From positions 50,683,894 to 50,723,407 of the forward strand of contig NC_057718.1 of NCBI RefSeq assembly GCF_004010195.1: a DNA stretch of 39,514 nucleotides. Reading direction: 5' to 3'. Below, piece by piece: positions 2,327-38,569 of this stretch (positions are counted from its first letter, which is position 1; every line of letters starts with the position of its first letter). The notes under the pieces are model-generated. The model worked only from the letters and a program-made list of their open reading frames with translations, did not search any database and was not told the origin of the DNA. The translations under genes were made by a program, and so were the position numbers. The DNA comes from Chiloscyllium plagiosum. Taxonomy: Eukaryota.

Positions 2327-2994
2327 GAGAAAGTGAGGACTGCAAATGCTGGTGATCAGAGTCGAAGAGTGTGGTGCTGGAAAAGCATAGTAGGTCAGGC
2401 AGCATCCAAGGAGTAGGAGAATTAATGTTTCGGGCATAAACCCTAAATATATAAAAACTGAGGTCCTTTGCAGGTCTGGGAGAGTGTGGCCCTGAGCTGA
2501 GTCAGGGCTGCCTGTAGAGAAAGTAGGTGGTGGCGCATGGCTGCAAATGTAGTGCGGAGTATCCTAAAGGAGAAACATTTCTGGAGGCTTTGGATTTGTT
2601 GTAGGTATTGGTTGTCCTGTTCAGGTTCAAATTGTAATGGTCTGAATGTAGTCCGGAGTCCCTATGGGATCAGTTGCTTCTGTAGACAGGCCCTGAGGAA
2701 GGAGGTGTGGCTGTGGTACTGAGTCTGCTTCAGGATGTGGCTGAAGAGTTTCAGGGCTGTGGAGACGACCTGTGGTGCAGTGAGAGAGAGATTCACTGAG
2801 ATCCTTGTAGACAGAGGAGGAGAACTTCTTCAAGGTGGGTATCCTTGGAAGAGGCTTCACAGTAAGGTTAAAATCAACTATGGGAAAGTGAGGATTGCAG
2901 ATGCTGGAGATCAGAGTTGAGTGTGTGGTGCTGTAAAAGCACAGCCAGTCAGGCAGCATCCAAGGAGCAGGAGAATTGACATTTCAGGCAGAAG
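2327..2994 (-). mobile_element. Penelope-like (family A) mini-element: pLTR piece, 5' portion of ORF, pLTR piece, with 14-bp TSD
   Basis: TSD CAGTCCAGCAATAG at 2313-2326 and 2995-3008; ~115-bp direct repeats at 2327-2444 and ~2882-2994; interior minus strand resembles a decayed PLE ORF N-terminus (KDLSESLSHCT...). Confidence 0.85.
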
Positions 2995-4731
2995 CAGTCC
3001 AGCAATAGTCTTGTGCTCCAAAATTCATTGAATCCTGGCCAAACTAATCCAGTACAATTACAATATTGGCATTTATCTTGTAATGTGGATAATTGCCAAG
3101 TTATGACCTATTACAAATAGTAAGGTAAATCCTCTCAATCAATTGCTGCCCAGTCAGTAAACTCGAGCATAAGCAAAGTGATGGCTGGGGTCATTGATAG
3201 TCCTCTCAGTGACACTTCGAAAGAAATTATCTGCTCTCTGATGTTTAACTTGGATTCCATCAGGGCCACACAGCTTCAGACCTCATTACAATCTTAGTCC
3301 AAGCATGGACAAAAGTGATGCCCTGTGATTGTCCTTGGTATCAAGGCAGCATTTGACCAAATCTAGCATCAAAGACTAGAGTTAATAGCATTCAGGATAA
3401 AACTCAATGCTAGTTGGAGTCAAACCTAACATAATGGAAGATGGTTGAAGTTGTCAATCATCTCAGTTCCTAGACATCACTGCAGCAGAACTTCAGGGAA
3501 AGTCCTCAGCCTAACTATCTTTAGTTGCTTCATCGATGGCCTTCCTTCCATCATAAAGTCAAAAGTGGGGATGTTCACTTTGTATGATATTCAGCACCAT
3601 TCACACCACCTCAGATATTGAATCAGTCTGTGTCCATATGCAACAAAACAACATCCAGGCTTGAGCAGATACGTGACAAGTAACATTTGTGTCCCACTAA
3701 TATCAGATAAAGGTCGCTTCCAACCAAAGAGAATCCAAACTCTTTCTCTTGATATGTAGCAGTATTACATTCATTAATTCCCCCACTATCAGCATCTCAG
3801 GAGTTACCATTGAGCACAAATTGAACTGGACCAACCAAGTAAATACTGTGGCTACAAGGGCAGGTCAGAAGCTAGGAGTTCCGCCATTAATAACTCACCT
3901 CATGGCTTCCATAATTTTGTCCACAGAACTTGCACAAGGCACAATTCAAGAGTACGTGAAATACTCTTCACTATCTTGGATGAGTGCATCTCGAACAATA
4001 CACAGGATGCTTGACAACAGTCAAGGCAAAATAGCCCACTATTTGACATCTCACCTTTAACGTTCACGTAATGGCAGCAGTTTGTACTATCTACAAGATG
4101 CACTGTAGCACCTCTCCACAGCTCCTTTGACAGCATTGTCCAATCCTGCAATCACTACCAACTTAAAGGACAATGTCAGCATTTGCATGGAAGACACCGC
4201 TGCAGGTTTGCCTACAAGCCAATCACCATCCTGACTTGGAACCATATCGCCATTCCTTCATTTTCAATGGGTCAAAATTCTAGAACTTAACAGCAACCGA
4301 CCAACCATGGATTGCAGTGATTCAAGAAGGCAGCTCACCATCACCTTCTCAAGCGCAGTTAGAAACAAGCAATAAATTTTGGCCTGACCAGGAAATTTTT
4401 TTGACATTTTTTTACAAACTTTGAAAATAAACAAATATAAACACTAATATGCCATTAAATATTAAATAAATAATAACCAAAACACAACAAACACAAACAA
4501 AGATAATAAAAACACTCAACTAAGAACTAATCTAACCTACAAATAACCAAAGCATATAATAGAATATCTTACATTACTCCAAAAAAAAACATAGTAATTA
4601 AATAATGAAGTACATGCTCAGAATTAATTAACATGAAGTCATAATAAAACCCGTATTCATATGGGATTCCTCTCCGCCGCCCCCCCCCCCACCCCACCCC
4701 AACCCTGGGCCAGCCAGAACCACCACCACAA

Positions 4732-7700
4732 CTAGATAAAAGCCCTTGACAATATGGCTGAAATATCTGTATCTATATAGTTCAGGAAGGGCTGCCATAT
4801 TTTATAGAATAATTCAGTTTTTTGGTGCACCATAATTATAAGGTAGTCAAGGGGAATACATTCCATGATTAACCTGTGCCAATTTGAAAGTCCTGGAGGG
4901 CCCTCAGCTGCCCAATTTACTAAGATATTTTTCCTTGCACAAAAGGAGAGAATGGAAAATAATTTCCTCCCATGCACATCCAGGGAGGGCAGGTTCGAAA
5001 AGCCCAGGAGAAGAGATACTGGATCTACTCCAATTTCCGCTCCCAAGATTTCTGTCAGTGCATTTGCTACTCTGGTTCAGTATTTACATATCTTATGACA
5101 TGTCCATAAGCAGTGTGTGAGAGTGCCCATTTCTATTTTACATTTAGGACACATTGGAGATGTTCCTGCCCGAAATTTGCCAGACGTTCCGGTGCTATAT
5201 GAGTCCTATGGAATATCTTTAGTTGAATAGCTTGGGTTCTATTACAAATGAAGATCTTTCTGGCATTTTCCCAGATGTCATCCCACATTTCTGAAGGGAT
5301 TTCCAACCCCAATTCCTGATTCCATGTTTTAAACAATTGTTTCATGTCTTTCGAAACTTTGTTCTGTAATGAGTGACAGAGAGTGCTGACCGAGGGTGGA
5401 CCCACTGGCCATAACACTCTTCTTTCCCTATCCGATTTATAAGAGCTATCTAATAATGTGCTCTTCTTCTGCACATAATCTCTAAGTTGGAAATATTGAA
5501 AAAGGTCTCCATTAGCAGTCCACATTTCTGGTGCAGCTATTCAAAAGACATCATAACCTCCCCATCGAACAGATCCCCTAAGCAAGAAATACCTCTGGAC
5601 CTCCAGGTTTTAAATGTAGAGTCTGTGTGCCCCAGTTGAAAATCCCATGCTCCCACTATAGGAGTATAAGGAGTGTTTTTTTGTGAATTGCCCTCGTCTT
5701 GCCGCATTATATTTCAAGCTTTAATTGTAGTTAGTACAATAGGGTTTTTACAATGGTCCATAATGACTTTTGTCTTATCTAAAAACAGAGATTGATGAGG
5801 GGACTCTTTGCCTGAGAAGCCTCGAGGTCCAGTCGGATTGATTGCAGGTCACACGAGACCCCAGTCGGCTACGTAGTTTAATAGAGAACTCAGCTGATTC
5901 TTCCTAAAGTCTGGAAAATCCAGTCTTCCCCTTGCTTGTGGAAGCTGCAGCTTCTTTAATTTAAGAAGGGGCCGTCTATGATTCCAAATGAAAGAACCAA
6001 GCCAACTGTATACTTTAGGAGAAAGTGAGGACTGCAGATGCTGGAGATCAGAGCTGAAAATGTGTTGCTGGAAAAGCGCAGCAGGTCAGGCAGCATCCAA
6101 GGAGCAGGAGAATCGACGTTTTGGGCATGAGCCCTTCTTCAGGAATCAATGACGATGTTCTCCATTCCTGAGGAAGGGCTCATGCCCAAAACGTCGATTC
6201 TCCTGCTCCTTGGATGCTGCCTGACCTGCTGCGCTTTTCCAGCAACACATTTTCAGCAAACGTATACTTTATGCAATGCCAGCCTTGGCAACATCACAGA
6301 GAGCATACTCATAGGGTATAGGAGATGAGGGAAAGTATTCATTTTAATTAGAGCTAGTCTGTCTAACCAAGATATCGGGAGACACCCCCAGCATTAAAGG
6401 TCCTGCCTTATCCTCTCTAATAGGTGCACAAAATTGGCTTTGTACAGCTGACCAAAAACTGTGGTGATAAAAATCCCTAAATATAAAAAACCCTCCAGAG
6501 ACCACTGAAAGGGAAAGCAAGACCCGTCCGATAAATTGGACATACTAGCGAAGCCACCCATCGGCATGGCCTCCGATTTTGTGAAATTGATTTTGTAACC
6601 TGAGAACGCACTGAATAAATTGATTACTTGGATCAAGCAGGGCACGGATATCAAAGGATTACTAAGAAAAAGGAGAACATTGTCTGCGTAAAGGGTAATT
6701 TTATGTTTACCTGAACCAAACCTCAGAGCCATTATATTAGAATCGGCCCGTATAGCTTCCGCTGGTGGTTCAATTATGAGCGTGAATAATAACGGTGAGA
6801 GAGGACATCCCTGACAACAGCCCTACCCACACTGAAGCTATCCAAGCCTAAACCATTAGTAATCAAGGCTGCTTTGGGATCATTGTACAATATTGAGACC
6901 TCTCCGACATCGAACTTTTCCAGTATGTAAAACAGATATGACCATTCAACCCGATCGAATGCCTTTTCTGCATTTAAAGAGACTACAATTCCCGGTATTC
7001 TTTGCTGATGACAGACTTGCATCACATTTAAAACCCTTCTAATATTAATAGATGATCTACTGCCCTTGATAAACCCCATCTGATCCTCTTTTATGATGTA
7101 TGGTAAAACCCTCTCCAACCTTAATGCTAATGTTTTAGAAAGAATTTTAAAATCTACATTTAGCAAAGATATTGGCCTGTATGATGTGCAATCTTCTGGG
7201 GCCTTTCCTTTTTTAAGGATGAGAGAAATATTTGCTTCTCTCATCGAAGGCGGGAAGCAGCCCTGACTATATGAATAATTATACATGTCCATAGGTGAAC
7301 CAGCCAGTACCCCTATAAACTCTTTGTAGAATCAGCCTGGAATCCATCTGAGCTAGGTGCTTTACTGCTCTGAAGCTGCCTGATTGCATCAAGTACTTCC
7401 TGGGTTGTCAGGGGAGCATTCAGGATCGACACCTGTTCTGGAGTTAAGTCCTGAAAGGCCAGTCTTTTAAAAAAGGATTCCATCTTCTTAGCTCTGTCTT
7501 CACAATCCTGTGATTTATACAGATCAGAATAAAACTTTCTGAAGGCTGTATTGATCCTTTTGCGGTCTTGAGTCAAAGTACCAGCACTTTCCCTAATGGA
7601 CGTGATAGCTTGAGGGGCCTTTTTTCTTCTTGCGAGATATGATAGGTATCTACCAGGCTTATAGCCGTATTCATATAGTCTTAGCTTTGCAAATAATATT

Positions 7701-8777
7701 TCCCTCTTTGCTGTTTGGGTAAGTGTGGTATTCAAGACTGTCCTGAGGGCTGTAATCCTTTGTAACTTAGCAATAGCGGGCCTATCAACATACATTATCT
7801 CAGCTGCCTTCAAGCGAGTCTCGAGTAGATGCTGTTGTTCTCTCTTTTGTTTTTTCTGTGTCGCCAAGTATGAAATAATGAGACCTCACGCATAAGCCTT
7901 AATGGTCTCCCACATCACTGATGGGTTACTAGCTGTGCCTGAGTTAATTTCCAAAAAGGTTTTAAATTCTCGAGAGAAATATTTTACAAATTAACTATCC
8001 TTCATTAAGAAGGAATCCATACACCAATGTCGGGGGGGCTTGTCTCATCGTCCCTAGCCTTAACTTCCATATATACTGCAGCATAATCAGAGATTATTAT
8101 ATTACCTATTTTGCAGGACAATATGGAGTTTAAAAAGGTCGAGGAGGGAGCAAAAAACATATCAATTCTAGTATGACACTTATGTGGTTAGAGTAGAAAG
8201 TAAAGTCTCTGCCCTGCGGATGAAGGCATCTCCACACATCTACTAACCCTAGCTCCTTATTCAAATCCGCCAATTGTCTGGATCTAAGAGATATACCTGC
8301 AGTACTCTTGGGTATCCTGTCTATCTCTCGGTCCATAGTACAATTAAAATCTCCTCCTATAATTGTGTGACCAGACCCAAAAGGCATCAGTCTGGAGAAC
8401 GCTTCCGTTATAAATTTGAAGGGGTGTGCCAGAGAACAATAAAGGTTCAAAATTCTATACTCCTCTCCATTTATGAGGGCTTTGATCAGTAAGTACTGTC
8501 TAGATTCATCTTTTATCTGACCAAAGATTTTGAAAGGAAGGTTCTTCTGAATGAGAATGACTACTCCCTTTCTTTTAGAACTAAAAGATGAAAAGAAGGC
8601 CTGATCGAATCCGCCTTGTTGTAATTTTAAGTGTTCTTTATCCAGTAAGTGTGTATCCTGTAAGAGAGCTATATCAATCCTTTCTTTTTTGAGGTTTGAT
8701 AGTATTTTCTTCCTTTTGATTGGTGAATTACGCTCCTTGACATTCGAGGTGCACCACCTAATTGAATGACTAACCAT
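4732..8777 (-). pseudogene. L1 ORF2p (APE endonuclease, reverse transcriptase, C-terminal cysteine-rich region), frameshifted
   Basis: MVSHSIRWCTSNVK...IALLQDTHL, IIGGDFNC, LVDVWR..HP..RDFTFYS (APE); SYRPISLLNVDFKILSK, SLNAEKAFDRVEW, LYADNVLL, FSGYKINFTKS (RT); CPKC...HCLWTC near 5100-5160; stop at 4732. Confidence 0.9.
6018..6257 (-). mobile_element. Short fold-back (palindromic) Penelope family A pLTR element inserted in L1 ORF2
   Basis: 94-bp inverted arms 6053-6146 and 6164-6257 (one mismatch seen) around a 17-nt spacer; ~35-nt unpaired tail 6018-6052; TSD GTATACTTTA at 6008-6017 and 6262-6271; degenerate hammerhead cores in both arms. Confidence 0.9.
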
Positions 8778-9490
8778 GATCGTCCAGGCAAGTCTGAAAC
8801 CCCCCCCCCCAGGAGAAGGAACCCCACCCAAAACACCCCGAGCACAGACCGTAGAAAATTCACAAAAGTAGAAGTTCTTTAATACATTAACGCCAATATA
8901 GTTAAAAACTATTTCTAAATAAGAAAAATATAAAACACATTTAAAAGGAGATTTTCCCCCTTTGTCCCGGTGGCATCACTATATGTCAATAAACCCACTG
9001 TATCCTTTCCCAACCAGCGCCCTGCCCTCGACCCAGGCATCACATAATAGAGTAAATAAATTCGAGTGTAGTATAAAATCAAAGTTAAATGTGAGTGCCT
9101 CACCCCCCACCCCCACCAACACTTGAATACGTTTAGTAAAGATAATACAAAGTATAAACATATAAAACTATAAAGTTACAATCCCAGCAAGTAATAGATA
9201 ACTAAGTATAATAACAGAAGTAGAAAAAAAACCCCGCTGTAAAAACAAATTGAGGTAGGACAGAGCAAATGCCAGCCCCCCCCCACCTTCCCCCAAACGA
9301 ATCAACTAAACCGCCCGGCCTGTAAAAGAAAAGGAGAATCACATAGTGGATAACAAATAAATAAGCCCCCTCCCTGCTCCCGGAGACAATATTAAACAAT
9401 AACGGGGGTGAAAGGAGAAAGAAAAGGTAAACCGGTTGTGGGGGGGGGAGCAAAATAGCATCATTAGCCATACGGTTTAATTCTTACAGT

Positions 9491-10332
9491 CTATTTAAGA
9501 GAGTCCAAAAATTCTTTAGCCTTCTCCGGTGATCCAAACTTATAAACGGATCCTTCATGGCTGAAGCGCAGCATTGCTGGGTAATGCAAGGAATATTGGA
9601 TGTTTAAATCTCTCAGGTGCTTCTTCGCCTCATCAAATGCCCTCCTTTTGTGGACCACGTCTGGAGAAAAATCTTGGAATAGCATACACCATGGCCTGGG
9701 GATCCTTCCCCAAGATTCTAGAGGCTTCCAGGAGCATCTGTTTCTCTCTCTAGCATTGGAGCCGGAACAGGACCGGGCGGGGGCGCTGGTCTGACCCGGG
9801 CCTGCGTATAGCAATCCGGTGGGCCCACTCTACCCACACCTGGCCTGATCTGGACTCCAGCTTTAATATTTCAGGGATCCATTGCTCCAAAAAAACTGCC
9901 AGCTGGCCTTCCTCTTCCCGTTCGGGAAGGCCCAGCAACCGAATATTTTTTCGATGACTCTGATTATCGAGGTCGTCGATGTGCTCCTCCAAGGTCCGTA
10001 CTCGCTGTTTGAGAGCCTGGACCCGGCACACGGCCGATTCAGCAGCAGTCTCCAAGGTCACGGCCTTTAGCTCCGTCCCTCCAACGCAATCTTCAAGTTT
10101 TTCAATTTCTCGGTCGTGCTTTTACAGCACAACCGAGAGTGACTCCCACCTGCTCCTGGATTCTTCAATAAAGGCATCGATCTTCTCCTGCAGCTTGTTA
10201 ATCACGGAGGCCAGGCTTACCTCCGCAGGCAAATGCCCCGAGGCGGCCGCGGACGTCTCCACTGCTGCTGGAGAGGGGTGGGGGAGGGGTCCCCGCCTAT
10301 TGCGAGCTGCGGGCATTTTTTCCTTTAGTCAT
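9491..10332 (-). pseudogene. L1 ORF1p (coiled coil, RRM, CTD), frameshifted
   Basis: DDLDNQSHRKNIRLLGLPEREE, WAHR...RPRPVLFR, LFQDFSPDVVHKRRAF...YPAMLRF...FGSPEKAKEFL are typical of L1 ORF1p. Confidence 0.88.
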
Positions 10333-10489: not shown

Positions 10490-10499
10490 CGCCATCTTG
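10490..10499 (-). promoter_or_regulatory. YY1-like motif (CAAGATGGCG) at the L1 5' terminus
   Basis: + strand CGCCATCTTG; position at the element's 5' end parallels the YY1 site of mammalian L1 promoters. Confidence 0.55.
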
Positions 10500-11828: not shown

Positions 11829-13552
11829 AATTGAACTGAATTGAATTTATTGTCACATGTACCGAAGTACAGTGAGAAGCTTTGTCTCGTGAGGAATACA
11901 GGCAGATCACATAATTAAATAGTATAGATAAGTACATAATAAGTAAACAGTGGCAAAAATCAAAACACAGGTACAGGCAAATGCTAAGAGTTTGTGAGTC
12001 GATTCAGTATTCTAACAACAGTCGGGTAGAAACTGTTTTGAAACTGGCTGGTGCATGCGTTCTGGCTTCTGTACCTTCTCCCCGATGGTAGAGGTTGTAG
12101 AAAAGCATTGCCAGGGTGGGATGGATCTTTGAGAATGCTGGCGGCTTGTCCTTGACAGCGGGCCTGGTAGATGGATTCTATAGATGGGAGATTGGCCTTT
12201 GTGATTTTCCAGGCCGAGTTCACCACTCTCTGTAACCATCTCCGATCTTGAGTGCTACAGTTGCTATACCAGGTAGTGATACATCCGGACAGAATGCTCT
12301 CAATAAAAGTTGGCAAGGGTATTCGTCGTCATGCCAAATTTTCTCAGCTGCTTGAGGAAGAAGAGACTTTGTTGGGACTTTGTGACAGTGCGTCCACATG
12401 AAGAGTCCAAGAAAGTTTGTTGTGGATGACCACTCCCAGGAGCTTGACACTCTTCACTTGTTCCACCTCTGAGCTGTTAATGTGTAGGGGGGCATGAGTA
12501 ACTTCCCACTGAAAGTCAATGCATTCCTTGGTTTTGCCGGCATTGAGAGCTAGGTTGTTCTCAGTGCACCATTTTCCCAGGTTTTCCACCTCCTGTCTGT
12601 AGTCTATTTTGTCGCCATCTGGGATTTGACTGACTTTGGTGATGTCATCAGCCAACTTGTAAATGGCATTAGTCTGGCATTTGGTGATGCAGTCATGGGT
12701 ATACAGTGAGTACAGTAGGGGGCTGAGTATGCATCCCTGGGGAGCTCCAGTGTTGAGTGTTAGTGACGATGAAATATTGTCCCCAATCTTCACTGGCCTG
12801 TGGGTCAGGAAACTGAGGATCCAGTTGCAGAGAGTGGGGTTTAGTCCAAGATTACTAAGTTTAGTAATCAGTCTCGAGGAGATAATAGTGTTGAAGGCTG
12901 AACTGTAATCAGTGAGTAGGATTCTTACGGAGCTGTTCTTGGTGTCAAGATGTTTTAGGGAGGAGTGAAGGGCAAGTGATATGGCATCTGACATTGATCT
13001 GTTGGTCCAATAGGTAAATTGGAGTGGGTCAAGAGTAGTGGGGAGGCTGGAGTTGATTAATGCCATGACCAGACTTTCAAAGAACTTCATGGCCACTGAA
13101 GTTAGGGCCATTGGGCGGTAGTCATTGAGACATGCTGCATGAGCCTTCTTAGGCACAGGGATGACGTTGACCCTCTTGAAATAGTCAGGGACAGTGGCCT
13201 GCTGCAGGGAGAGGGTGAAGATGTCCAAGAAGACCTCTGCCAGTTGATCTGCACATGCTCTGAGTGCACGGCCTGGTACTCCATCTGATCCCATCGTTTT
13301 CCTTGGATTCACACGAAGGAAAACTGATTTGACCTCTGAGGCAGTGACTGTTGGGGTAGGTTCGTCAGGACTTGTCGGAATAGGTGTTACCTCTGTGCCG
13401 AAATTCTGCTCAGAGCGAGCATAGAAGGCATTGAGACAATCTGGGAGGGATGTATCATTGTCTGCTATCTTGCACTGTCTCTTTTTAGAATGCTATCATT
13501 CAGTCCTTGCCATAGTCACCAGGTGTCCGTCTGGGTTTCTAGTTTGGATCTC
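11829..13552 (-). mobile_element. Rex1/Babar LINE, 5'-truncated (RT to 3' tail)
   Basis: ORF 12344..13312 GSDGVPGRALRACADQLAEVF...CLNDYRPMALTS...DYSSAFNTI...TGAPQGCILSPLLYSLYTHDC...ADD; ORF 11984..12316 IESILSGCITTWY...HPGNAFLQPLPSGRRYR; (AATTG)n tail at ~11829-11850; 5-bp CAGTG duplicated at 11824-11828 and 13553-13557. Confidence 0.9.
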
Positions 13553-18121: not shown

Positions 18122-18567
18122 TGATAAAGGGGCTGGCATGGATAGATGATTGGCTGATTGGCAGAAGGCAGATGGCAGTGATAAAAGGGTCATTTTCGGA
18201 ATGGCAACTGCTGACCAGTGGAGTTTCGCAGAGGTCCATGTTGGAACCACAATTATTCATGTTATACATTAATCATCTGCACAAAAGAGCTGAAGGCATT
18301 CCTGCTAAGTTTGATGATAGTACAAAAATCGGTAGAGGAACAAGTTGTTTTGAGGCAGCAGGGAGCTGCAGATGGCCTTGGATAGGCGAGAAGTGTGGGC
18401 CAAGAAGCAGACAGTACGCAAGTGGTAATGTGTGAGGTTCTTCACTTTTCTAGGAAGAATAAAGGCATAGACTGTTTTCTAAACAGGCCAATATTTTGGA
18501 AATCTGAAGCACAAAAGGACTTGAAAGCTGTTGTTTAGGATTCTCTTAAAGTTAGCAGGTATCTTCA

Positions 18568-18604
18568 TTTCCTGAAGAAGGGCTTATGCCCGAAACATCG
18601 ATTT
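18568..18604 (+). ncRNA. Minimal type-I hammerhead ribozyme motif (PLE family A), core intact
   Basis: CTGAAGA (18572-18578), stem II GGGC-TTAT-GCCC, GAAA-C-ATC; stem I is weak. Confidence 0.6.
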
Positions 18605-18657
18605 TCCTGCTCCTTTGATGCTGCCTGCCTGCTGCGCTTTTCCAGCAACACATTTTT
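18571..18657 (+). mobile_element. 87-bp solo Penelope family A pLTR insertion beginning at the hammerhead core
   Basis: Flanked by CAGGTATCTTCATTT (18556-18570) and CAGGTAACTTCATTT (18658-18672); body matches the arms at 6164-6257 and 25644-25732. Confidence 0.8.
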
Positions 18658-19261: not shown

Positions 19262-20451
19262 GAAAACAATTCATCAACTTCATCAACACATTCCACCTTG
19301 ACCTTAAATTCACCTGGACCATCTCTGACACCTCCTTCCCCTTCCTGGACCTCTTCATCTCCATTAATGACAACCGACTTGACACTGACATTTTTTACAA
19401 ATCCACTGACTCCCACAGCTACCTGGATTACACCTTTTTCCATCCTACCTCCTGCAAAATTGCCATCCCGTATTCCCAATTCCTCCGCCTCTGCCATATC
19501 TACTCCCAGGAGGACCAGTTCCACCACAGACCACACCAGATGGCCTCCTTCTTTAGAGACCGCAATTTCCCTTCCCACGTGGTGGAAGATGCCCTCCAAC
19601 GCATCTCATCCACATCCTGTACCTCCGCCCTCAAACCCTACCCCTCCAACCGTAACAAGGACAGAAACCCCTGGTCCTCACTTTCCACCCTACCAACCTT
19701 CGTATAAACTGCATCATCCACCAACATTTCCGCCACCTCCAAACAGACCCCACCATCAGAGATACATTTCCCTCCCCACCCCTTTCCGCCTTCTGCAAAG
19801 ACCATTCCCTCCGTGACTACCTGGTCAGGTCCACTCCCTCCNNNNNNNNNNNNNNNNNNNNNNNNNNNNNNNNNNNNNNNNNNNNNNNNNNNNNNNNNNN
19901 NNNNNNNNNNNNNNNNNNNNNNNNNNNNNNNNNNNNNNNNNNNNNNNNNNNNNNNNNNNNNNNNNNNNNNNNNNNNNNNNNNNNNNNNNNNNNNNNNNNN
20001 NNNNNNNNNNNNNNNNNNNNNNNNNNNNNNNNNNNNNNNNNNNNNNNNNNNNNNNNNNNNNNNNNNNNNNNNNNNNNNNNNNNNNNNNNNNNNNNNNNNN
20101 NNNNNNNNNNNNNNNNNNNNNNNNNNNNNNNNNNNNNNNNNNNNNNNNNNNNNNNNNNNNNNNNNNNNNNNNNNNNNNNNNNNNNNNNNNNNNNNNNNNN
20201 NNNNNNNNNNNNNNNNNNNNNNNNNNNNNNNNNNNNNNNNNNNNNNNNNNNNNNNNNNNNNNNNNNNNNNNNNNCCCCACCCCCACTTATCTCTCCACCC
20301 TGGAGGCTCCCTGACTCCATTCCTGATGAAGGACTTTTGCCCAAAACATCGATTTTCCTGGTCCTCGGATGCTGCCTGACCTGCTGTGCTTTTCCAGCAC
20401 CACTCTAATCTAAACTCTGGTTTCCAGCATCTGCAGTCCTCACTTTTGCCC
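19262..20451 (+). mobile_element. Penelope-like element family A, 5'-truncated (RT thumb region, gap, 3' pLTR)
   Basis: FINFINTFHLDLKFTWTISDTSFPFLDL...IFYKSTDSHSYLDYTFFHP...AIPYSQFLRL (PLE RT); after the gap, pLTR CCTGATGAAGGACTTTTGCCCAAAAC...CAGCATCTGCAGTCCTCACTTT; continuity across the gap is assumed. Confidence 0.85.
19842..20274. other. Assembly gap (N run)
   Basis: Run of N. Confidence 1.
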
Positions 20452-24814: not shown

Positions 24815-25406
24815 AAATTACAAGAATGCAGATTGATTTTATCCAGGAGCAAAGTGGGGCTTCTGTGTTGTCAGATCTACAGCGGACATGATCTTCTCCA
24901 TACGCCAGTTCCATGAGAAGTGTTCCAAAGAAGAGTTATACCAGACTTGATTTTCAAACTTTATTTTTCTTTCCCCAGGAATGTTGCTAGACATGCTGAA
25001 CCTCTCAAGCACTTTCTGTTTTTATTTATTATCTCAGAGGTGCAGTGAAGACGATCAACTTCTTTACCTTAATTGGATAGATCTCAAGAAAGCATTTAAC
25101 ATCATCAGCAGGGTCAGACTCCATGAGATATTTTTTCTGTACAAATTGGCTGATCAGCAAAGCTCTGCAGCTTCTCTCACTCTGTATAACGTAACTTGAG
25201 AGCTGCATTTCTGATGTTTTCAAAATGAAGCATAGACTGAAGCAGAGCTCTTCTCGCTGCCTCTTTGTTTGGCATCTTCTTTTTAAATTTCCCTTCCCAG
25301 CAGATATGGAATGTGTATACTTGCATACTAAGTTAAATGGAAAGCTCTAACAATTATTCCAGACTGAAAATGAAGATAAATATACAGTGCATCCTGATGA
25401 TAGAAT
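24815..25406 (+). mobile_element. Ancient RTE-clade RT remnant; host of the large Penelope insertion
   Basis: GFCVVRSTADMIFSIRQFHEKC (~24858-24923), LYLNWIDLKKAFNIISR (~25062), SLFGIFF (~25262), VYLHTKLNGKL (~25315) resemble RTE RT motifs. Confidence 0.7.
24925..25030 (+). mobile_element. Possible very degenerate pLTR of a third PLE family inserted in the RTE remnant
   Basis: Interrupts RTE homology; GAAGAGTTATACCAGACTTGA...ATGTTGCTAGACATGCTGA...CAAGCACTTTCTGTTTTT loosely parallels the family A pLTR layout (GATGCTGCCTGACCTGCTG...TCCAGCA). Confidence 0.35.
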
Positions 25407-25527
25407 TAAAAATCACACAACACCAGGTTATAGTCCAACAGTTAAATTGGAAGCACACTAGCTTTTGGAGCGTCGTTCCTTCATCAGATGGTAGTGGAGG
25501 GCTCAATCCTAACACACAGAATTTATA

Positions 25528-25732
25528 AGGAGAAAGTGAGGACTGCAGATACTGGAGATCAGAGCTGAAAATGTGTTGCTGGAAAAGCGCAGCAGGTCAG
25601 GCAGCATTCAAGGAACAGGAGAATCGACGTTTTGGGCATAAGCCCTGAAGAAGGGCTTATGCCCGAAACTTCGATTCTCCTGTTCCTTGGATGCTGCCTG
25701 ACCTGCTGCGCTTTTTCAGCAACACATTTTCA
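25528..25732 (-). mobile_element. Short fold-back Penelope family A pLTR element nested in the family B left arm
   Basis: TSD ACACAGAATTTATA at 25514-25527 and 25733-25746; inverted arms ~25566-25646 and ~25652-25732; tail 25528-25565; empty site visible in the right arm at ~29588-29603. Confidence 0.92.
25645..25675 (+). ncRNA. Minimal hammerhead ribozyme motif (family A)
   Basis: CTGAAGA 25645-25651, stem II GGGC/GCCC, GAAAC 25665-25669, then TTC; the native stem I 5' strand is replaced by the inverted arm. Confidence 0.5.
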
Positions 25733-26162
25733 ACACAGAATTTATAGCAAATTTTACAGTGTGATGTAACTTAAATTATACATTGAAAAATTAATTGTTT
25801 GTTAAGCCTTTCATCTGTTAGAATACCGTGATAGTTTCACTTCTTTCATGTGTAAATCACAAAACCTTTTTTTAAAAGGTTGCATTCTTGGGTTAGCTGT
25901 TAACAATGGTGATAGCTAGACAATATGTTGAAGGTGTTGGCCCCCTGTGTTCTCTGTCTATGCCATGATGTTTAGATTGATTCTAATCTAAAAAGTGAGA
26001 TAACGGAGTTTTACATGAATTCATGCAGTTTTTGAGCTCAGAGTTTCTGTCTGGGTGAGGGTGGTGAGTGTGAGAAAGTGTATGTGTGTGTGTGTAGTGA
26101 GTGCAGAGTATCTTAAGTCTGTGAGGGGGTGCATGTATGAGTGTGGGAGTATGTGTGTCTGT

Positions 26163-27956
26163 AGTTGTCTGTGGGTTTGCGGTAGAGTGTGGTGCTGAGG
26201 TGTCCATCCTTGATGGAGACGCATGTGTCCAGGAATGAGACAGATTGTCGAGGGTAGTCCATGGTGAGTTTGATGGTGGGATGAAACTTGTTGATGTCGC
26301 TGTGTAGTTGTTGAAACTTGTTGATCAGTCCTCGCCATGGGTCCAGAGGAAGAAAATGTCGTCAATGTACCTGGTGTACAATATTGGTTGGAGATCCTGC
26401 ATAGAGTAGAAGTCTTGTTCAAACCTGTGCATAAAAATGTTGGCATATTGGGATGCAAATTTGGCCCCAATGCCTGTTCCATGTGTATTGGTGAAGAACT
26501 GGTTGTCAAAGGTGAAGACGTTGTAATCAAGGATAAAGCTGATGAGTTGTAGGATGGTGTTTGGAGATTGGCAGTTGTTGGTGTTGAGTACTGAGGCTGT
26601 TGCCGTGATGCCATCATTGTGCGGGATGCTGGTGTAGAGTGCGGAAACGTCCATTGTGATGAGGAATGTTCCCGGTTCGACTGGTCCGTGGGTGCTTAGT
26701 TTCTGTAAGAAATCCGTAGTGTCGCGACAGAAGCTGGAGATCCCCTGTAAAATAGGTTTCAAGATGCCTTCCACATAGCAGGAGAGATTCTCACATAGGG
26801 TCCCATTGCCTGACACAATGGGGTGTCCTGGTGTGTTGGCTTTGTGTACCTTGGAAGGCAGTAGAAGTCGCCTACATGAGAATTATGTGGGATGAGAGCA
26901 GGTAGGGAACTCTGAAGGACTGGATCCAAAGTTCTGATCAGTGTATTTAATTCACGGGTGTGTTCTTTGGTCAGATCAGCTAGTAGTTACCTGTAGTATT
27001 CCTGGTTGTTCAGTTGTCGGTACACTTCCTTGCAGTAATTTGTTCTATTCTGAATGACAATGGCTCCTCCTTTATCTGCTTGTTTTCTTGACAATGTTGT
27101 GATTGGTTTTGAGAGCCTGGATGGCATTGCATTGTGAACGGGTGATGTTTTGCTCTACCTTGTGGGTATGGCTGATGAATCTGGCATTTATATATTTCCT
27201 GGTGGTATGAGGATACATGTCAAGCCCAGGGCAGTGGCCCTCCGGTGGGGTCCAAGTTGACACCTTCTTTGGTCGCTCCTCTACAGATCCCTGTGATGAC
27301 TATTCCAATTCATTAGTGGGCTCATTGGGATCACTGCAGGCACCTTGAAAGAATTCCTGGAGTCTTATTCATCTGATGAACTCCTCCGTGTCTGCTGCAA
27401 GAACCAACGAGTCCATTTTAGTGGTAGGGCAGAAGTTGAGACCCCTACTCAAGACTTCAATCTCTTCCAGTCGAAGGGTGTGGTCCGATAAGTTGATAAT
27501 AGACTTCCCCGCAGTGATAGTGTTGTCTACTGTGGTTCCAGGGTGGGCTTTGCTATTACTGGTGAGAATGCCAAATTTCTCCAGTTTTTTGTTCTTGGCG
27601 TGCATGTACATGTGTAGTTTTGTCGCCTTGTCTGTTTAGCAATGTCACATAATTGTACTTATGTATCCTGGGTGCAGGCTGAGAGTGTGGACTCCATCTG
27701 AATTTCAAGGTTGTGGCGCCTGCTGTAGAGTTGGTGCACGAGATGATTGAGAAGTTTACGAGAGGTGCGGTGGCAAAGTCTCTCTGCGTAGTCTGTGTTG
27801 TAGGTCGACCTAAGTGGGTTCATAATCCATAATCCTTTTGGGATTTTTCCTGCTTGCCTGCATTCCTGTAGAAACTTGATGTCTGTGTCGATATGTGTGA
27901 TCTTCTTAGAGATCCTCTCCACTTTGCCGGCAGTTAGTGGTGTTGATAGTAGTCAT
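26163..27956 (-). pseudogene. PLE family B ORF: N-terminus and reverse transcriptase (endonuclease deleted), disrupted
   Basis: ATG at 27956 right after the pLTR tail; IINLSDHTLRLEEIEVLSRGLNFCPT; ADKGGAIVI (~27080); TMDVSALYTSIPH...GTGIGAKFASQYANIFM...YTRYIDDIFFLW; homology stops after RKPTDN and jumps to the 3' UTR. Confidence 0.9.
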
Positions 27957-28024
27957 GATTTGGAGATGCCAGTGTTGGACTGGGGTGTACAAAGCTAAAA
28001 AACACACAACACCAGGTTATAGTC

Positions 28025-29050
28025 ACTGATAAAACTACACAGTGACATCAACAATTTTCATCCCACCATCAAACTCACCATGGACTACTCTCGACTGTCT
28101 GTCTCATTCTTGGACACATGCATCTCCATCAAGGATGGACACCTCAGCACCACACTCCACCGCAAACCCACAGACAACCTCACAATGCTACACTTCTCCA
28201 GCTTCAACCCAAAACATATTAAAACAGCCATTCCCTATGGCCAAGCCCTAATCATACACCACATCTGCTCAGATGAGAAGGAGCGTGACTGACACCTGTA
28301 AGTACTCAGGGATGCCCTCACAAGAACGGAGTACAATGCCCAACTCATCGACTGCCAGTTCCAACGAGCCACAGCAAGGAACCGTAATGACCTTCTCAGG
28401 AGACAGACATGTGCTGCAACCGACAGGGTACCCTTCGTTGTTCAGTATCTCCCAGGAGCTGAAAAATTACACCATGTTCTTCATGACCTGCAACACATTA
28501 TCAATGAGGATGAGCACCTCACCACGACCTTCCCCACACCTCCACTACTTGCCTTTAAATAATCGCCAAACCTCAAACAGATCATTGTTCATAGCAAGCT
28601 GCCTGGCTCTCAGGACAACTCCATACAACCCTGTCACGGTAGGCGCTGCAAGACGTGTCAAAGTGTGGACATAGATACCACCATTACGTGTAGGGACACC
28701 TCCCACCTTGTACATGGCAGGTACTCATTGACTCAGCCAACGTTGTCTATCTTATACGTTGCAGGCAAGGATGCCCGGAGGCATGGTACATTGGGGAAAC
28801 CGAGCAAAGGCTACGACAATGAATGAATGGGCACCGCACAACAATCAACAGACAGGAGGGTTCCCTCCCAGTTGGGGAACACTTCAGTGGTCCAGGACAT
28901 TCAGCCTCGGACCTTCGGGTGACCATCCTCCAAAGTGGACTTCGGGACAGGCTGCAGAGAAATGTGGCTGAGCAGAGGCTGATAGCTAAGTTCAGTACCC
29001 ATAGGGAGGGCCTCAACCGGGACCTTGGGTTCATGTCACATTACAGCTGA
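28025..29050 (+). pseudogene. PLE family B ORF C-terminus: RT thumb and GIY-YIG endonuclease, disrupted
   Basis: VSFLDTCISIKDGHLSTTLHRKPTDN...AIPYGQAL; CKTC linker (~28647); NVVYLIRCRQGCPEAWYIGETEQRLRQ; MNGHRTTI...VGEHF...AEQRLIAKFSTHREGLNRD; stop at 29050. Confidence 0.9.
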
Positions 29051-29064
29051 CCACCATTGCACTA

Positions 29065-29305
29065 TACACACACACGGATACTCCTTCATACACACACACA
29101 CATTCTCACACACACACAGGCATTCCTATACATACATACACACGGACACACATATACACAGATGTGCACACAGTCACCCACACACACCCTTACAGACACA
29201 CCTACTCCCACACTCACACATGTACCCCCTCACAGACTTAAGATGCTCTGCACTCACTACACACACACATAATTTCTCACACTCACCACCCTCAACCCAG
29301 ACACA
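29065..29305 (+). repeat. Imperfect (CA)n-rich tract in the PLE family B 3' UTR (mirrored as GT-rich at ~26050-26160)
   Basis: Direct reading of the sequence. Confidence 0.9.
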
Positions 29306-29622
29306 TGCATGAATTCATGTAAAACTCCGTTATCTCACTTTTTAGATTAGAATCAATCTAAACATCATGGCATAGACAGAGAACACAGGGGGCCAACACC
29401 TTCAACATATTGTCTAGCTATCACCATTGTTAACAGCTAACCCAAGAATGCAATCTTTTAAAAAAAGGTTTTGTGATTTACACATGAAAGAAGTGAACCT
29501 ATCACGGTATTCTAACAGATGAAAGGCTTAACAGACAAATAATTTTTCAATGTATAATTTCAGTTACATCACACTGTAAATTTTTGCTATAAATTCTGTG
29601 TGTTAGGATTGAGCCTCCACTA

Positions 29623-29659
29623 ACACCTGATGAAGGAACGTCGCTCCGAAAGCTAGTGT
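29623..29659 (+). ncRNA. Minimal type-I hammerhead ribozyme motif (PLE family B)
   Basis: Stem I ACAC (29623-29626)/GTGT (29656-29659); CTGATGA 29627-29633; stem II GGAAC-GTC-GCTCC (one mismatch); GAAA 29648-29651; palindromic AGCT in place of stem III; CUA triplet ending at 29655. Confidence 0.75.
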
Positions 29660-32120
29660 GCTCCAATTAAACCTGTTGGACTATAACCTGGTGTTGTGTG
29701 ATTTTTAACTTTGTACACCCCAGTCCAACACCGGCATCTCCAAATCATCCTGATGATAGAATATCTCCACTTGTTGGGCGAGTCATTCAAATGGAAGTTC
29801 AACTACAAAGATTCATGGATTGTTTGTCCCATGCCTGTAACTTGCCTACATAATCGAAGTGTTTCCCATTCTACTGACACATCATCTCTAGTGCCCTGAC
29901 TGATGTATTAGAAGGTTTTACCGTGAGAGACAGGAAGTCAGTCAGGCCATCTAGTGAAGAATTCAGTGTAACACAAGTCGTACTGTTGTAGGGAATGCAC
30001 CTATGAGTCGCCCCACAGCATTCTGGTGGTGTTTTTATTCTATTTCCATCAAATAAGAGGCCTCAAAATGTCTCTCAGAGTTCCAAATTATTTATATCAG
30101 TAAAGACAATTTTATTTGTTCCAAAATTGATATCCATCTCATCTTTGATGGGAATATTAGAACATTGTATTTTATTTTTGCTTTATTAAAACTGGCTCCA
30201 GGAACTCTGTTGTTCCTCAGTATATCTAATCTGATAAATTTCTATTAGAATCAAGCTATATTCATTTCTTCAAGTTTAAGATCTGAATTTTTTCTATCTA
30301 TGCCCTCTAATTTACAGATATATTGCTGTTCAATGGCTCAACATAATATTCTCTTATTTTGCTTCCATTATGTATTGATTTGGTAAGTCTGAATTTAAAG
30401 CATTCATTAAAACAAAAATCCATTACAACGTAATTTTTGCCGTAACATGACAAATGTGTTGACATTTATCAATACAGACCATTTAATATACATGTAATCT
30501 GTAATGCAACATTGAAGAGGTGTGAAGCTCTAACCTTGGCACTTAACCCTTCCAAGTACACAGCAAACTTTAAAATTACATATCTATATTCATAATGTCA
30601 TATATTATTTAGCTTTTGTAGCACAGGAGCTGCAATTGTATATCTGAAGTGATAAATACATTATCTAGATGTCACTGCTATCCAAGAGTTTCTAATATTT
30701 CCCTTTTTGAGTTAATTTATATCATTTTTTTAAATTTCAAACAAATGTGCCCGTAAGAATAAACAAAGAGGAAATGACAGTTCAGATATTCTTATTATAG
30801 TCATATAAGCTGGCAGAGATGTTACATATTTCCATGGTAACTATCGTCTGATACTTTGCAACAGTATTTTTTCCTCTTGGTTGCTATTAAAAGTTCAATA
30901 TAAATAAAAATAAACATGAAACAAGTAAGTTCCAGTTTATAATGGCTAACTTCACCTCTATTCAACCTAACCCTAATTCTGCCAGTTCTCATTCATGCTG
31001 ACGAGCCTTTCTCTATTTCCTTCAGTTCAACCTAGTTTTCCTCTTCCCTTGTTCAAAGTAACACCCTTTCCTCTTCTGTCGTGCAATCAATAATCCTCCC
31101 TTCACAGTGGAAATTTGAACTTCTCCTAGCCCTCATTCAAGTTGACACTCTCACACTCCCACTGTGTTATTATCAACACACACTCCCACCATCACAGTGT
31201 TGACACTTGCTTTCCTTTCCTTCAACAAAACACTGCTGCCAACTTCTTTCACCTTCATTGCCTCAAGTAAGCCTTCAATTTTTCCTTAATTGTTATTCAC
31301 TTGTTTTCCCAATCTTCGTTTCTTTTTTTCTCTTCCCTTTCTCCCTTCAATATTATTTCCCTCTACTTCGGTTTCATTAATTTTTATTTCCTGTCTATAC
31401 CTCTCCCCTCAGCACTCCTAACTAATCCTTCTTGACTTCTTGCTTCCCTATGCTTTAAATGTAACTACAACTCAATGGCTATCCTTCATTGGTTATTAGA
31501 CATTTTGGAATGTCTACAAGTCATATTTTATCATTAAAAGTAATTTCTTCCATTTATTAATGGTGATTTTCTCCACTGAATTCTGTCAGAAAGAATTTCT
31601 GATCACATTATGAACCACTATGATTAATAGCAAAATTTAATTATGTGGTTGCTGAGTTGGAAGGAGTGAGAGATATGGTCCATGTAGGTTCATATTAGCA
31701 AATAATTGCACTCAAACTCAAACTAAATTATTATTGGTAGTGGTATTATGCAGGTCCCATATACCTTCTTTATCACCCTGTCAATCAATCAAAATTAGGA
31801 TTATTAGTATTCTGATTTACTATCTGACTTGTAACTTTTGTTTCACAAATCCAGAATGCTTAAAGCTTTCAGTTTTGAAGTGACACATGCCTGGGTTCTA
31901 TTATGTTATAGAGTATTTGTTCCTATCAAGAAAGATGGCAGCCAGAACTCATGTCACATCGTCCCTGTGCCATCACACAGTTGTGAAATGATCTCTATTG
32001 TCAGTATGCATCCATTGAAGTGTGAACAAGGATGAGGCTGCCATTACTCCCAGGGTTTGTTGAAAGCTAGAAGATAACATTTGTTGTAGTCCTCTCTAGA
32101 ATTTTCATTGACAGCCATTT

Positions 32121-33535: not shown

Positions 33536-33574
33536 TGGGGAGAGGAGACGAGCAGACAGCAGCATGGGAAGGTA

Positions 33575-35308
33575 AGAGTCATAGAGTCATAGAGATGTAC
33601 AGCATGGAAACAGACCCTTCAGTCCAACCCGTCCATGCCGAGCAGATATCCCAACCCAATCTAGACCCACCTGCCAGTACCCAGCCCATATCCCTCTAAA
33701 CCCTTCCTATTCATATACCCATCCAAATGTCTCTTAAGTATTGCAATTGGACCAGCCTCCACCACTTCCTCTGGCAGCTCATTCCATACACGTACCACCC
33801 TCTGTGTGAAAATGTGACCCTTAGGTCTCTTTTATATCTTTCCTCTCTCACCCTAAACCTATGCCCTCTAGTTCTGCATTCCCAACCCCAGGGAAAAGAC
33901 TTTGTCTATTTGCCCTATCCATACCACTCATAATTTTGTAAACCTCCATAAGGTCACCCCTCAGCCTCCGACGCTCCAGAGAAAACAGCCCCAGCTTGTT
34001 CAGCCTCTCCCTATAGCTCAAATCCTCCAACCCTGGCAACATCCTTGTAAATCTTTTCTGAACCCTTTCAAGTTTCACAACATCTTTCCGGTAGGAAGGA
34101 GACCAGAATTGCACGCAATATTCCAACAGTGGCCTAACCAATGTCCTGTACAGCTGCAACATGACTTCCCGACTTCTGTACTCAATATCCTGACCAATAA
34201 AGGCAAGCATACCAAACGCCTTCTTCGCTATCCTATCTACCTGCGACTTCACTTTCAAGGAGCTAAGAACCTGCACTCCAAGGTATCTTTGTTCAGCAAC
34301 ACTCCCTACAACCTTACCATTAAGTGTGTAAGTACTGCTAAGATTTGCTTTCCCCAAATGCAGCACCTCACATTTATCTGAAATAACTCCATCTGCCACT
34401 TCTCAGCCCTTTGGCCCATCTGGTCAAGATCCTGTTGTAATCTGAGGTAATCCTCTTCGCTGTCCACTACACCTCCAATTTTGGTGTCATCTGCAAACTT
34501 ACTAACTGTACCTCTTATGCTCGCATGCAAATCATTTATGTAAATGACAAAACGTAGAGGGCCCAGCGACAAAACGTAGAGGGCCGNNNNNNNNNNNNNN
34601 NNNNNNNNNNNNNNNNNNNNNNNNNNNNNNNNNNNNNNNNNNNNNNNNNNNNNNNNNNNNNNNNNNNNNNNNNNNNNNNNNNNNNNNNNNNNNNNNNNNN
34701 NNNNNNNNNNNNNNNNNNNNNNNNNNNNNNNNNNNNNNNNNNNNNNNNNNNNNNNNNNNNNNNNNNNNNNNNNNNNNNNNNNNNNNNNNNNNNNNNNNNN
34801 NNNNNNNNNNNNNNNNNNNNNNNNNNNNNNNNNNNNNNNNNNNNNNNNNNNNNNNNNNNNNNNNNNNNNNNNNNNNNNNNNNNNNNNNNNNNNNNNNNNN
34901 NNNNNNNNNNNNNNNNNNNNNNNNNNNNNNNNNNNNNNNNNNNNNNNNNNNNNNNNNNNNNNNNNNNNNNNNNNNNNNNNNNNNNNNNNNNNNNNNNNNN
35001 NNNNNNNNNNNNNNNNNNNNNNNNNNNNNNNNNNNNNNNNNNNNNNNNNNNNNNNNNNNNNNNNNNNNNNNNNNNNNNNNNNNNNNNNNNNNNNNNNNNN
35101 NNNNNNNNNNNNNNNNNNNNNNNNNNNNNNNNNNNNNNNNNNNNNNNNNNNNNNNNNNNNNNNNNNNNNNNNNNNNNNNNNNTCCCTGGCTTGTCCTTAC
35201 CACCCTTCTTAAACAGTGGCACCACGTTTGCCAACCTCCAGTCTTCTGGCACCTCACCTGTGACTATCAATGATACAAATATCTCAGCAAGAGGCCCAGC
35301 AATCACTT
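33575..35308 (-). mobile_element. CR1 LINE, 5'-truncated, spanning an assembly gap
   Basis: IAGPLAEIF...VPEDWRLANVVPLFKKG (35306 downward), GPLRFVIYINDL...SKFADDTKIGG, ORF 33848..34399; tail (AGAGTCAT)n at ~33575-33594; continuity across the gap is assumed. Confidence 0.9.
34587..35182. other. Assembly gap (N run)
   Basis: Run of N. Confidence 1.
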
Positions 35309-36450
35309 ATCTAAATGATTTGGATGTGAACATAAGAGATATAGTTAGTAAGTTTGCAGATGACACCAAAATTGGAGGTGCAGTGTACAGCGAAGAAGGT
35401 TACCTCAGATTACAACAGCATCTTGATCAGATGGGCCAATGAGCTGAGAAGCGGCAGATGGAGTTTAATTCAGATAAATGCAAGGTGCTGCATTTGGGGA
35501 AAGCAAATCTTAGAAGGACTTACACACTTAATGGTAAGATCCTAGGGAGTGTTGCTGAACAAAGAGACCTTGGAGTGCAGGTTCATAGCTCCTTGAAAGT
35601 GAAGTCGCAGGTAGCTAGGATAGTGAAGAAGGCAGTTGGTACGCTTTCCTTTATTGGTCAGAGTATTTAGTACAGAAATTGTGAGGTCATGTTGCGGCTG
35701 TACAGGACATTGGTTAGGCCACTGTTGGAATATTGCATGCAATTCTGGTCTCCTTCCTATTGGAAAGATGTTGTTAAACTTGAAAGGGTTCAGAAAAGAT
35801 TTACAAGGATGTTGCCAGGGTTGGAGGATTTGAGCTATCAGGAGAGGTTGACTAGGCTGGGGCTGTTTTTCCTGGAGCGTCGGAGGCTGAGGGGTAACCT
35901 TCGAGAGATTTTGTAAAATCATGAGGGGCATGGATAGGATAAACAGACAAAGTCCCCTGGGGTGGGGGAGTCCAGAATTTGATGACATAAGTTTAGGGTG
36001 AGAGGGGGAAGATATAAAAGAGATCCAAGGGGCAACATTTTCATGCAGGGTGTGGTACTTGCATGGAATGAGCTGCCAGAGGAAATGGTGAAGACTAGTA
36101 CAATTGCAACATTTAAAAGTTAAAAATCACACAACACCAGATTATAGTCCAACAGGTTTATTTGGAAGCACTAGCTTTCGGAGAGCTCTGAAAACTAGTG
36201 CTTCCAAATAAACCTGTTGGACTATAATCTGGTGTTGTATGATTTTTAACTTTGTACACCCCAGTCCAACACTGGCATCTCCAAATTATAACATTTAAAA
36301 GGCATCTGGATGGGTATATGAATATGAAGGGTTTGGAGGGATATGGACCGGGTGCTGGCAGGTGGAACTACATTGGGTTGACATATCTGGTTGGTTTGGA
36401 CCAAAGGGTCTGTTTCTGTGCTGCACTTCGCTAAGACTCTATGACTCTAA
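35309..36450 (+). mobile_element. CR1 LINE 3' part, same family as 33575-35308 and head-to-head with it; carries a PLE insertion
   Basis: YLNDLDVNIRDIVSKFADDTKIGG, LYRTLVRPLLEYCMQFWSP; tail GACTCTATGACTCTA at ~36435-36449. Confidence 0.92.
36120..36289 (+). mobile_element. Short fold-back Penelope family B pLTR element
   Basis: TSD AACATTTAAAAG at 36108-36119 and 36290-36301; ~65-bp inverted arms centred at ~36185; tail GTACACCCCAGTCCAACACTGGCATCTCCAAAT nearly identical to 29713-29745. Confidence 0.92.
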
Positions 36451-38568: not shown

Positions 38569-38569
38569 G

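Follow-up and report, generated by a model that had tools for sequence, protein, structure and literature searches.

Insertions of endonuclease-bearing (EN+) Penelope-like elements (PLEs) are described as 5′-truncated copies and partial tandems, with an inverted 5′-truncated copy by the 5′ end, flanking target site duplications (TSDs) and a tail of 30–40 bp that is often present at one end only (Craig et al. 2021, PMC8557442; Arkhipova et al. 2013, PMC3846280). Hammerhead ribozymes of metazoan PLEs occur mostly as single motifs on truncated elements, with opposite-strand pairs 100–700 bp apart (Cervera and De la Pena 2014, PMC4209133). For PAc, the Poseidon element of Anolis, two internal reverse transcriptase (RT) start sites define the tail in vitro; the protein, for which a dimer is modelled, both cuts and extends the two strands, and the RNA it uses is uncleaved (Frangieh et al. 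2024, PMC11167929). Here, we analyzed a stretch of 39,514 nucleotides from Chiloscyllium plagiosum (contig NC_057718.1, positions 50,683,894 to 50,723,407, forward strand), termed the window, which contains short hammerhead-bearing copies of two families, A and B, and compared it with a sample of the 3.56-Gb genome. The short copies, which number in the hundreds of thousands in this genome, are abortive insertions of two endonuclease-bearing PLEs. Their 5′ ends pile up at a fixed position just upstream of the ribozyme, termed the wall, and this pile-up probably reflects run-off at the 5′ end of an RNA that starts at the wall, following twin internal priming.

Positions within the elements are counted from C3 of the hammerhead core (position 0), with minus denoting upstream. 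The genome sample consisted of 160 stretches of 10 kb on a grid (1,545,317 non-N bases). Each arm was aligned against a library built from 100 real long copies, with its own locus excluded. This yielded 454 arms, or 449 after removal of duplicates (352 family A, 97 family B), explaining about 3.5% of the sampled DNA. Arms adjoining N or a stretch edge were excluded from the counts, and simulated uniform truncations passed through the identical pipeline served as the null. For arms with a 5′ end between −100 and +60, 126/268 (47%) of family A and 39/75 (52%) of family B ended within −10 to +4, compared to 61/457 and 50/332 of the simulated ends, or 13–15% (Fisher p 6e-23 and 9e-11, respectively). 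The breakpoint clustering noted for the window in a preliminary description is therefore more than local. Loss per base, computed after dropping 15 arms of a third pseudo-long terminal repeat (pLTR) family, was 0.3–0.9% further upstream and, within stem II, 1.2% for family A and 0.6% for family B, climbed through the ribozyme towards the core and peaked with 6.6–8.4% at 0 to −6 in family A and 9.6% at −8 to −10 in family B (11/42 at risk in the unselected sample). Relative to the core, the wall lies some 4 bases upstream in family A and some 8 in family B. Consequently, the earlier view that breakpoints meet at the core and stem II stands for the vicinity of the core, but not for stem II, and the stem II breakpoints of the window are the downstream shoulder of the main peak.

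Whole-genome exact-match counts within one homogeneous subfamily, A3, resolved the wall more sharply. The counts decreased from 11585 at the core to 8182 (to −4), 6243 (−5), 4712 (−7) and 3928 (−17), corresponding to losses of 8.3, 23.7, 13.1 and 1.8% per base across the successive steps, with the steepest one from −4 to −5; the value beyond −7 includes mutation, and about a third of the A3 copies still match at −17. Among 30 unselected A3 loci, 22 extend 0–6 bases, none 7–27 and 8 at least 28 bases. Two A3 copies (L258 and L268) have an identical 3′ flank, probably due to segmental duplication or carriage inside another repeat. For family B, 10/26 short copies at targeted loci end at −8/−9, a set in which about half of the loci (39/69) had been pre-selected for matching that far and in which one short copy (L315) was wrongly filed as long.

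The 3′ ends fall into two classes, tailless and tailed, which are 31 (A) and 36 (B) bases apart. The median 5′ ends were nevertheless +3/+2 (A, tailed/tailless) and −2.5/−2 (B; Kolmogorov–Smirnov p 0.19 and 0.46), and the wall window contained 56/107 tailed and 58/107 tailless family A arms, compared to 13 and 4 in the shifted windows. As the arm lengths differ while the 5′ stops agree, the wall is a fixed landmark and not a distance, rejecting a smooth distribution of distances from the 3′ end as the null. TSD-bounded solo copies likewise ended near the wall in 15/22 cases.

An excess at +27 to +34 in family A (32 versus 55 flanking; p 0.01 against simulation) was considered as a cleavage-site peak, but is largely due to the third, more diverged pLTR family together with internal deletions. 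After dropping its 15 arms, 24/243 family A arms remain at +28 to +35; family B showed no excess at the cleavage site, and overall no clean genomic peak was found at the cut site. The third family (L051, L102, L117, L122, L123, L163 and others) has its own hammerhead-like head and a downstream stem-loop in common with family A.

The preliminary description had proposed the ribozyme fold as a hotspot of stalling or template switching. A folded, possibly dimeric, hammerhead or a protein on it acting in this way would account for a wall that lies at most 8 bases from the core in both families and for the climb in loss per base through the ribozyme. In family A the wall even falls on the 5′ base of stem I, so that this family alone cannot tell a start site from a fold. 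Family B separates the two readings, because its stem I spans only −1 to −3 with the wall at −8, about 5 bases past the stem. Moreover, the loss within stem II is low, at −4 or −8 the RT has already copied the pairing partners, and the shared wall passing of both palindrome arms described below fits the type of template better than independent stalls. Mutating the hammerhead of PAc does not alter its insertion band (PMC11167929). We thus regard stalling at the ribozyme as unlikely.

The sequence at the wall resembles a promoter. In family B, the wall is the A of TCCACT, located about 30–32 bases after a TATAAA that is present at −36 to −41 in 46/59 library copies. In family A, it is the A of TCATTC, 31–33 bases after a conserved TTTATC (at −35 to −37 in 31/41 library copies), with a variable spacer between the two. 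The motifs at the wall thus read TCATTC or CCAC(T/A), and the TATA-to-initiator spacing in both families is that of known promoters. Furthermore, G was found at −5 in 1049/1939 A3 copies matching to −4 without a C at −5 (54% versus 26% expected), while at the next bases, −4 and −3, G occurred in 3/28. An extra G marks the capped 5′ ends of L1 insertions (PMC11702581). The G excess just outside the wall is as would be expected from a copied cap, although partly confounded. Stem I microhomology was rejected as a source of the extra G, with 0/11 local cases showing any.

An RNA 5′ end at the wall could also arise by processing, either through a nuclease cut or by splicing to a very short exon. 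This would account just as well for the wall and for both template classes, and in D. virilis the 5′ edge of helix I marks the end of the intron (PMC4209133). The short copies, however, have no common upstream exon, since all clusters of their upstream flanks were either unspliced subfamilies or inverted arms. Neither −4 nor −8 has an AG acceptor, and the TATA-like and initiator-like motifs stand at the right spacing in both families. Processing appears to us quite unlikely, slightly more so than stalling.

The arrangement of the arms reports on how the cDNAs were primed. The 1.545-Mb sample contained 102 close head-to-head pairs and 2 tail-to-tail pairs, extrapolating to roughly 235,000 close palindromes genome-wide. 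A TSD of at least 10 bases was detected for 51/102 head-to-head pairs (chance 3/300). One tailed and one tailless arm made up 74/79 classifiable pairs (p 8e-17), with centres varying from copy to copy. The tailless arm extends beyond the tailed one by 10 or more bases in the 5′ direction in 31/74 of these pairs, and the arm ends are uncorrelated within pairs (rho −0.03, n 65). In contrast, wall passing is shared: in 24 pairs both arms stop at the wall, in 9 both extend beyond and only 5 are mixed (p 4e-5). This points to two template classes, with both arms made on the same kind of RNA. Arm–arm identity was above that of the median other arm in 55/70 pairs but topped the best other arm in only 10/70, so that the arms of a pair may stem from one RNA or from two RNAs of one source.

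The palindromes had previously been taken for fold-backs. Self-priming or fold-back of a single cDNA or an antisense template (PMC3846280), or hairpin spread in the manner of miniature inverted-repeat transposable elements (MITEs), would be in line with arms usually deriving from one subfamily and with the short overlaps at some junctions. Yet in the non-nested pairs neither arm contains the other, which largely rules out fold-back copying for them, and the uncorrelated arm ends and varying centres make this origin very unlikely in general; a self-propagating palindromic family was rejected, as neither a constant centre nor equal arms were found. Two separately primed cDNAs, on the other hand, can give non-nested pairs. 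The tailed arms of L068, L118, L127, L144 and L066 stop at +77 to +85, about where the tailless arm begins, as if one polymerase had met the other cDNA on the same RNA. Spacers of 1–47 bases separate the arms in many pairs (e.g., window 6147–6162), some of them resembling element pieces, which suggests templated end joining.

It is hardly credible that the wall is an alignment artefact, with alignments breaking at the core because the ribozyme is conserved across subfamilies and the upstream DNA diverged, since, although this holds for single-query BLAST ends (rejected as breakpoints for their confounding by subfamily differences) and for RNA reads on family A, and the third pLTR family fakes a bump at +29 to +38, in the leave-one-out simulation no more than 10/234 upstream ends of family A and 13/184 of family B were wrongly placed in the range around the wall, exact counts inside a homogeneous subfamily show the identical wall and the TSD-bounded solos end near it.

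Families A and B are, as judged by their motifs, EN+ PLEs of the Neptune type. The RT of family B matched Pfam RVT_1 (E 2e-7), carries a DKG motif and is linked to the pLTR in loci L192–L220, and for family A the RT-end frame only was obtained. Both families have a C-terminal GIY-YIG-type endonuclease (EN) by motif (Y.GET) and a Cys linker between RT and EN (CHGGRCKTC in B, CHRRNCKTC in A), a CX2-5CxxC linker being a feature of Neptune-type EN+ elements (PMC8557442); the broken EN fragment of the window gave no Pfam match. Both also bear a predicted minimal type I hammerhead, comprising the CUGANGA core, a bulged base, GAAA and UH. Among the in-register library copies, 32/40 of family A and 49/54 of family B have an intact core and 40/40 and 54/54 the G10.1–C11.1 closing pair, and the palindromic 15.2–16.2 segment with UH reads ACGT-C and AGCT-A. 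Helix I pairs at 3/4 positions in family A, with T–T at −3 in 33/40 copies, and comprises 3 bp in family B, the minimal type I hammerhead of PLEs having a helix I of 4–5 bp. An Rfam scan matched no hammerhead family and returned weak microRNA matches. The tail runs straight into the start of the open reading frame (ORF), so that the 5′ pLTR copy carries the priming sites near the 5′ end of the transcript. The first ATG of the ORF is found at the tailed end, +123, in family B. In family A the first ATG is at +14, in loop II of the hammerhead and 18 bases after the wall (window 2962–2980 region); self-cleavage would therefore remove the cap together with the start codon.

Run-off after twin internal priming would proceed as follows. 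From the TATA-like box and the initiator in the pLTR, transcription would begin immediately ahead of the ribozyme and yield a capped, uncleaved RNA. The element protein would then nick both target strands and prime two cDNAs inside one RNA, one per start site, at positions about 90 and 125 bases downstream of the wall. Both cDNAs would run these about 90 or 125 bases to the RNA 5′ end, or halt shortly before it. Joining of the two cDNA ends would give a palindrome, and joining of one cDNA to the target a solo copy. The wall-passing copies would come from the second template class, in which the promoter region lies upstream of the priming sites, for instance through a tandem RNA made by read-through, through a circle or by a jump between templates. 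The ribozyme would merely mark the spot by being the first thing in the transcript. In agreement with the preliminary description and with PAc in vitro (PMC11167929), simple copying of the 3′ cleavage product is insufficient and an uncleaved template is called for. The tandem or circular template envisaged there would be needed only for the minority beyond the wall, because an ordinary capped transcript primed near its 5′ end would suffice for the short copies.

Several observations weigh against this mechanism. The edge of the wall is wider than one base, as many ends fall 1–10 bases short and family A loses 5% per base at −7 to −12. Overlapping arms on one RNA would require strand displacement, a hypothetical step. 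In family A, TTTATC is a weak TATA and, as noted, the wall coincides with the base of stem I. Regarding the extra G, 4/11 local cases read CAGG/ATTC, the G could come from the partner arm, and the random sample had G in 5/10 cases at the wall versus 35/107 elsewhere (p 0.31). The promoter of Drosophila Penelope is internal and TATA-less, with a start well upstream of the hammerhead (PMC2377424, PMC4209133). Finally, run X19, a poly(A) single-cell library of a related organism of which ~2% was read, showed no pile of molecule starts among those listed and, for family A, no poly(A) site among the 6/182 loose read ends shown. From this run, 184 reads that stop at −4 of family A were rejected as start evidence, being confounded by subfamily sequence, and a depth step at the family B wall was not used as support, as it derives largely from 316 reads with variant upstream sequence. 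Among the runs recorded as RNA none contained the window, a result that argues neither way; run X20 contributed no reads, and the contig runs X1 and X3 are unsuited to show ends.

The same run placed the poly(A) addition of family B at +56 and +59 (282 and 330 reads, 612 in total), 12–15 bases after an AWTAAA hexamer, before a GU-rich tract and upstream of both priming sites. A family B mRNA with its regular 3′ end would thus offer only its 5′ pLTR copy for priming, and long copies would need read-through, a jump or a circle, because the 3′ end of such an mRNA has no priming site. Tentatively, and with considerable doubt, the family B pLTR may be a true U3-R-U5 module, in which exactly one minimal hammerhead lies between the start at −8 and the poly(A) site at +57. 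If so, the mature mRNA would have a ribozyme half-unit at each end and no 3′ priming site, and uncleaved capped RNA would yield only strong-stop-like stubs and palindromes. The two ends would pair as a dimeric hammerhead, and double cleavage and ligation would give a circle serving as template for long, promoter-restoring partial tandems, with the genome recording both template classes.

All five elements of the window that had been singled out for breakpoints near the ribozyme are in place, each flanked by a TSD of 12–15 bp (Table 1). The 6018 palindrome has a left arm that stops at −4 and a right arm that begins at −5/−4, separated by a spacer of 16 bases, and the base just past −4 of its tailed arm reads G in sense. 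For the solo copy at 18571 the start is ambiguous between −1 and −3 because of microhomology, and the arms of the 25528 palindrome overlap by 2 bases. In the 36120 palindrome both arms break off within the 3′ strand of stem II, near +16/+17, with the centre at 36184/36185. The direct repeat at 2327–2994 lacks both hammerhead cores, with repeats beginning at about +11 (by eye; −14 according to the aligner) and +7. Its middle part directly follows the tail 3′ in L066, L184, L277 and L144, and the element looks like a template jump made near the RNA 5′ end. The long family A copy at 19255–20450 extends past the wall. In the large family B insertion, the near-full-length, tailless minus arm (25406–28024; RT at 26325–26882) stops at +53 of its 5′ pLTR, near the poly(A) site, and is followed by the tailed plus arm (about 28025–29748).

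Table 1 Features of families A and B in the window (positions from the first letter of the window).
Feature	Position	Strand	Structure	TSD
Family A miniature partial tandem	2327–2994	−	pLTR–tail–440 bases of ORF N-terminus–pLTR–tail	14 bp, 2313–2326 and 2995–3008
Family A head-to-head palindrome	6018–6257	both	Tailed minus arm 6018–6146, tailless plus arm from 6163/6164 to 6257	14 bp with 2 mismatches, 6004–6017 and 6258–6271
Family A solo tailless copy	18571–18657	+	Start at −1; host is a CR1-type long interspersed nuclear element (LINE) remnant	15 bp, 18556–18570 and 18658–18672
Family A long copy, 5′-truncated	19255–20450	+	RT end, N gap, 3′ untranslated region, core at 20323, tail	
Family B head-to-head insertion, 4.3 kb	25406–29748	both	Single insertion	17 bp, 25390–25406 and 29746–29762
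Family A palindrome nested in the family B insertion	25528–25732	both	Tailed arm to +7/+8, tailless arm from −1	14 bp, 25514–25527 and 25733–25746
Family B palindrome	36120–36289	both	Left arm tailless, right arm tailed	12 bp, 36108–36119 and 36290–36301
Family B TATAAAT box	29588–29594	+	31 bases before the wall; putative promoter element	
Family B wall	29619	+	A of TCCACT (−8); predicted transcription start	
Family B minimal type I hammerhead (predicted)	29624–29658	+	Core at 29627; predicted cut after 29655	
Family B poly(A) signal and sites	29666–29671; 29683 and 29686	+	AWTAAA hexamer; poly(A) addition at +56 and +59, then GU-rich tract	
Family B tail	29712–29748	+	From tailless end (about +87) to tailed end (+123)	

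Decayed LINE-type remnants with endonuclease and RT frames occupy 4732–9829 (minus), 11984–13492 (minus), 33572–36451 and 38450–39184 of the window. One of them is interrupted by the 36120 palindrome plus another LINE copy.

Compared with described EN+ PLE insertions, families A and B match the architecture with their tails of 31/36 bases, inverted truncated partners and TSDs, and differ in that the arms are mostly 90–125 bases long and often non-nested (PMC8557442, PMC3846280). For a rotifer pLTR, a pair of TATA and initiator-like motifs has been noted, as in both families here. In their accessible parts, these accounts report neither a fixed 5′ wall nor counts of tailed and short arm pairing, and explain inverted junctions via self-priming or EN cleavage. 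The ORF of PAc begins at stem II, as in family A, whereas that of family B begins at the tail end, and families A and B carry a Neptune-type Cys linker, unlike PAc; the accessible text on PAc gives no transcription start site and no model of second-end joining or palindromes (PMC11167929). Metazoan PLE hammerheads have the same core, bulged base and palindromic 15.2–16.2 segment, but their motifs differ from the stem II of 4–5 bp and stem I of 3–4 bp found here. In the model proposed for them cleavage defines the template, whereas the short copies of families A and B do not begin at the cut site (PMC4209133). Non-LTR retrozymes (bioRxiv 10.64898/2026.07.22.740005) are, like the copies described here, non-coding, hammerhead-bearing and related to PLE pLTRs. 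As described there, they are head-to-tail tandems of whole units, whereas the family A and B copies are solos or head-to-head pairs, mostly without a promoter; no run of two or more complete hammerhead units in head-to-tail order was found among the window elements, which were the extent of that search.

The family B order of promoter, start, poly(A) site and priming site resembles retroviral U3-R-U5. Retroviral strong-stop DNA is primed by a tRNA. In families A and B, by contrast, nicked target DNA would prime, strand transfer is not shown, and short products integrate in huge numbers. In L1 twin priming, each arm represents a separate part of the RNA, with synthesis beginning at the poly(A). 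The arms of families A and B overlap for the most part and start at two fixed internal sites, so that an L1-type geometry of non-overlapping arms was rejected. What both would share is cDNA priming from the two target ends, which results in an inversion flanked by a TSD (PMC11702581). The pLTR of families A and B is also reminiscent of HeT-A, whose 3′ region holds a promoter for the copy lying downstream (PMC5537684).

The inverted truncated partner, the one-sided tail, solo hammerheads and opposite-strand pairs are thus already known (PMC8557442, PMC3846280, PMC4209133), and the openly accessible literature gave no account of a fixed 5′ wall, tailed and short pairing counts or a poly(A) position at +56/+59. 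In the PLE papers, the origin of inverted pLTRs and one-sided tails and the role of the hammerheads are open questions. Start-site run-off and two-end priming would add a mechanism to the known insertion architecture and predict exact transcription starts. The stubs should accordingly not be annotated as short interspersed nuclear elements, MITEs or microRNAs. Taken together, the palindromes of this genome are a large record of insertion intermediates, linking the 2024 in vitro result on PAc to insertion structure in vivo.

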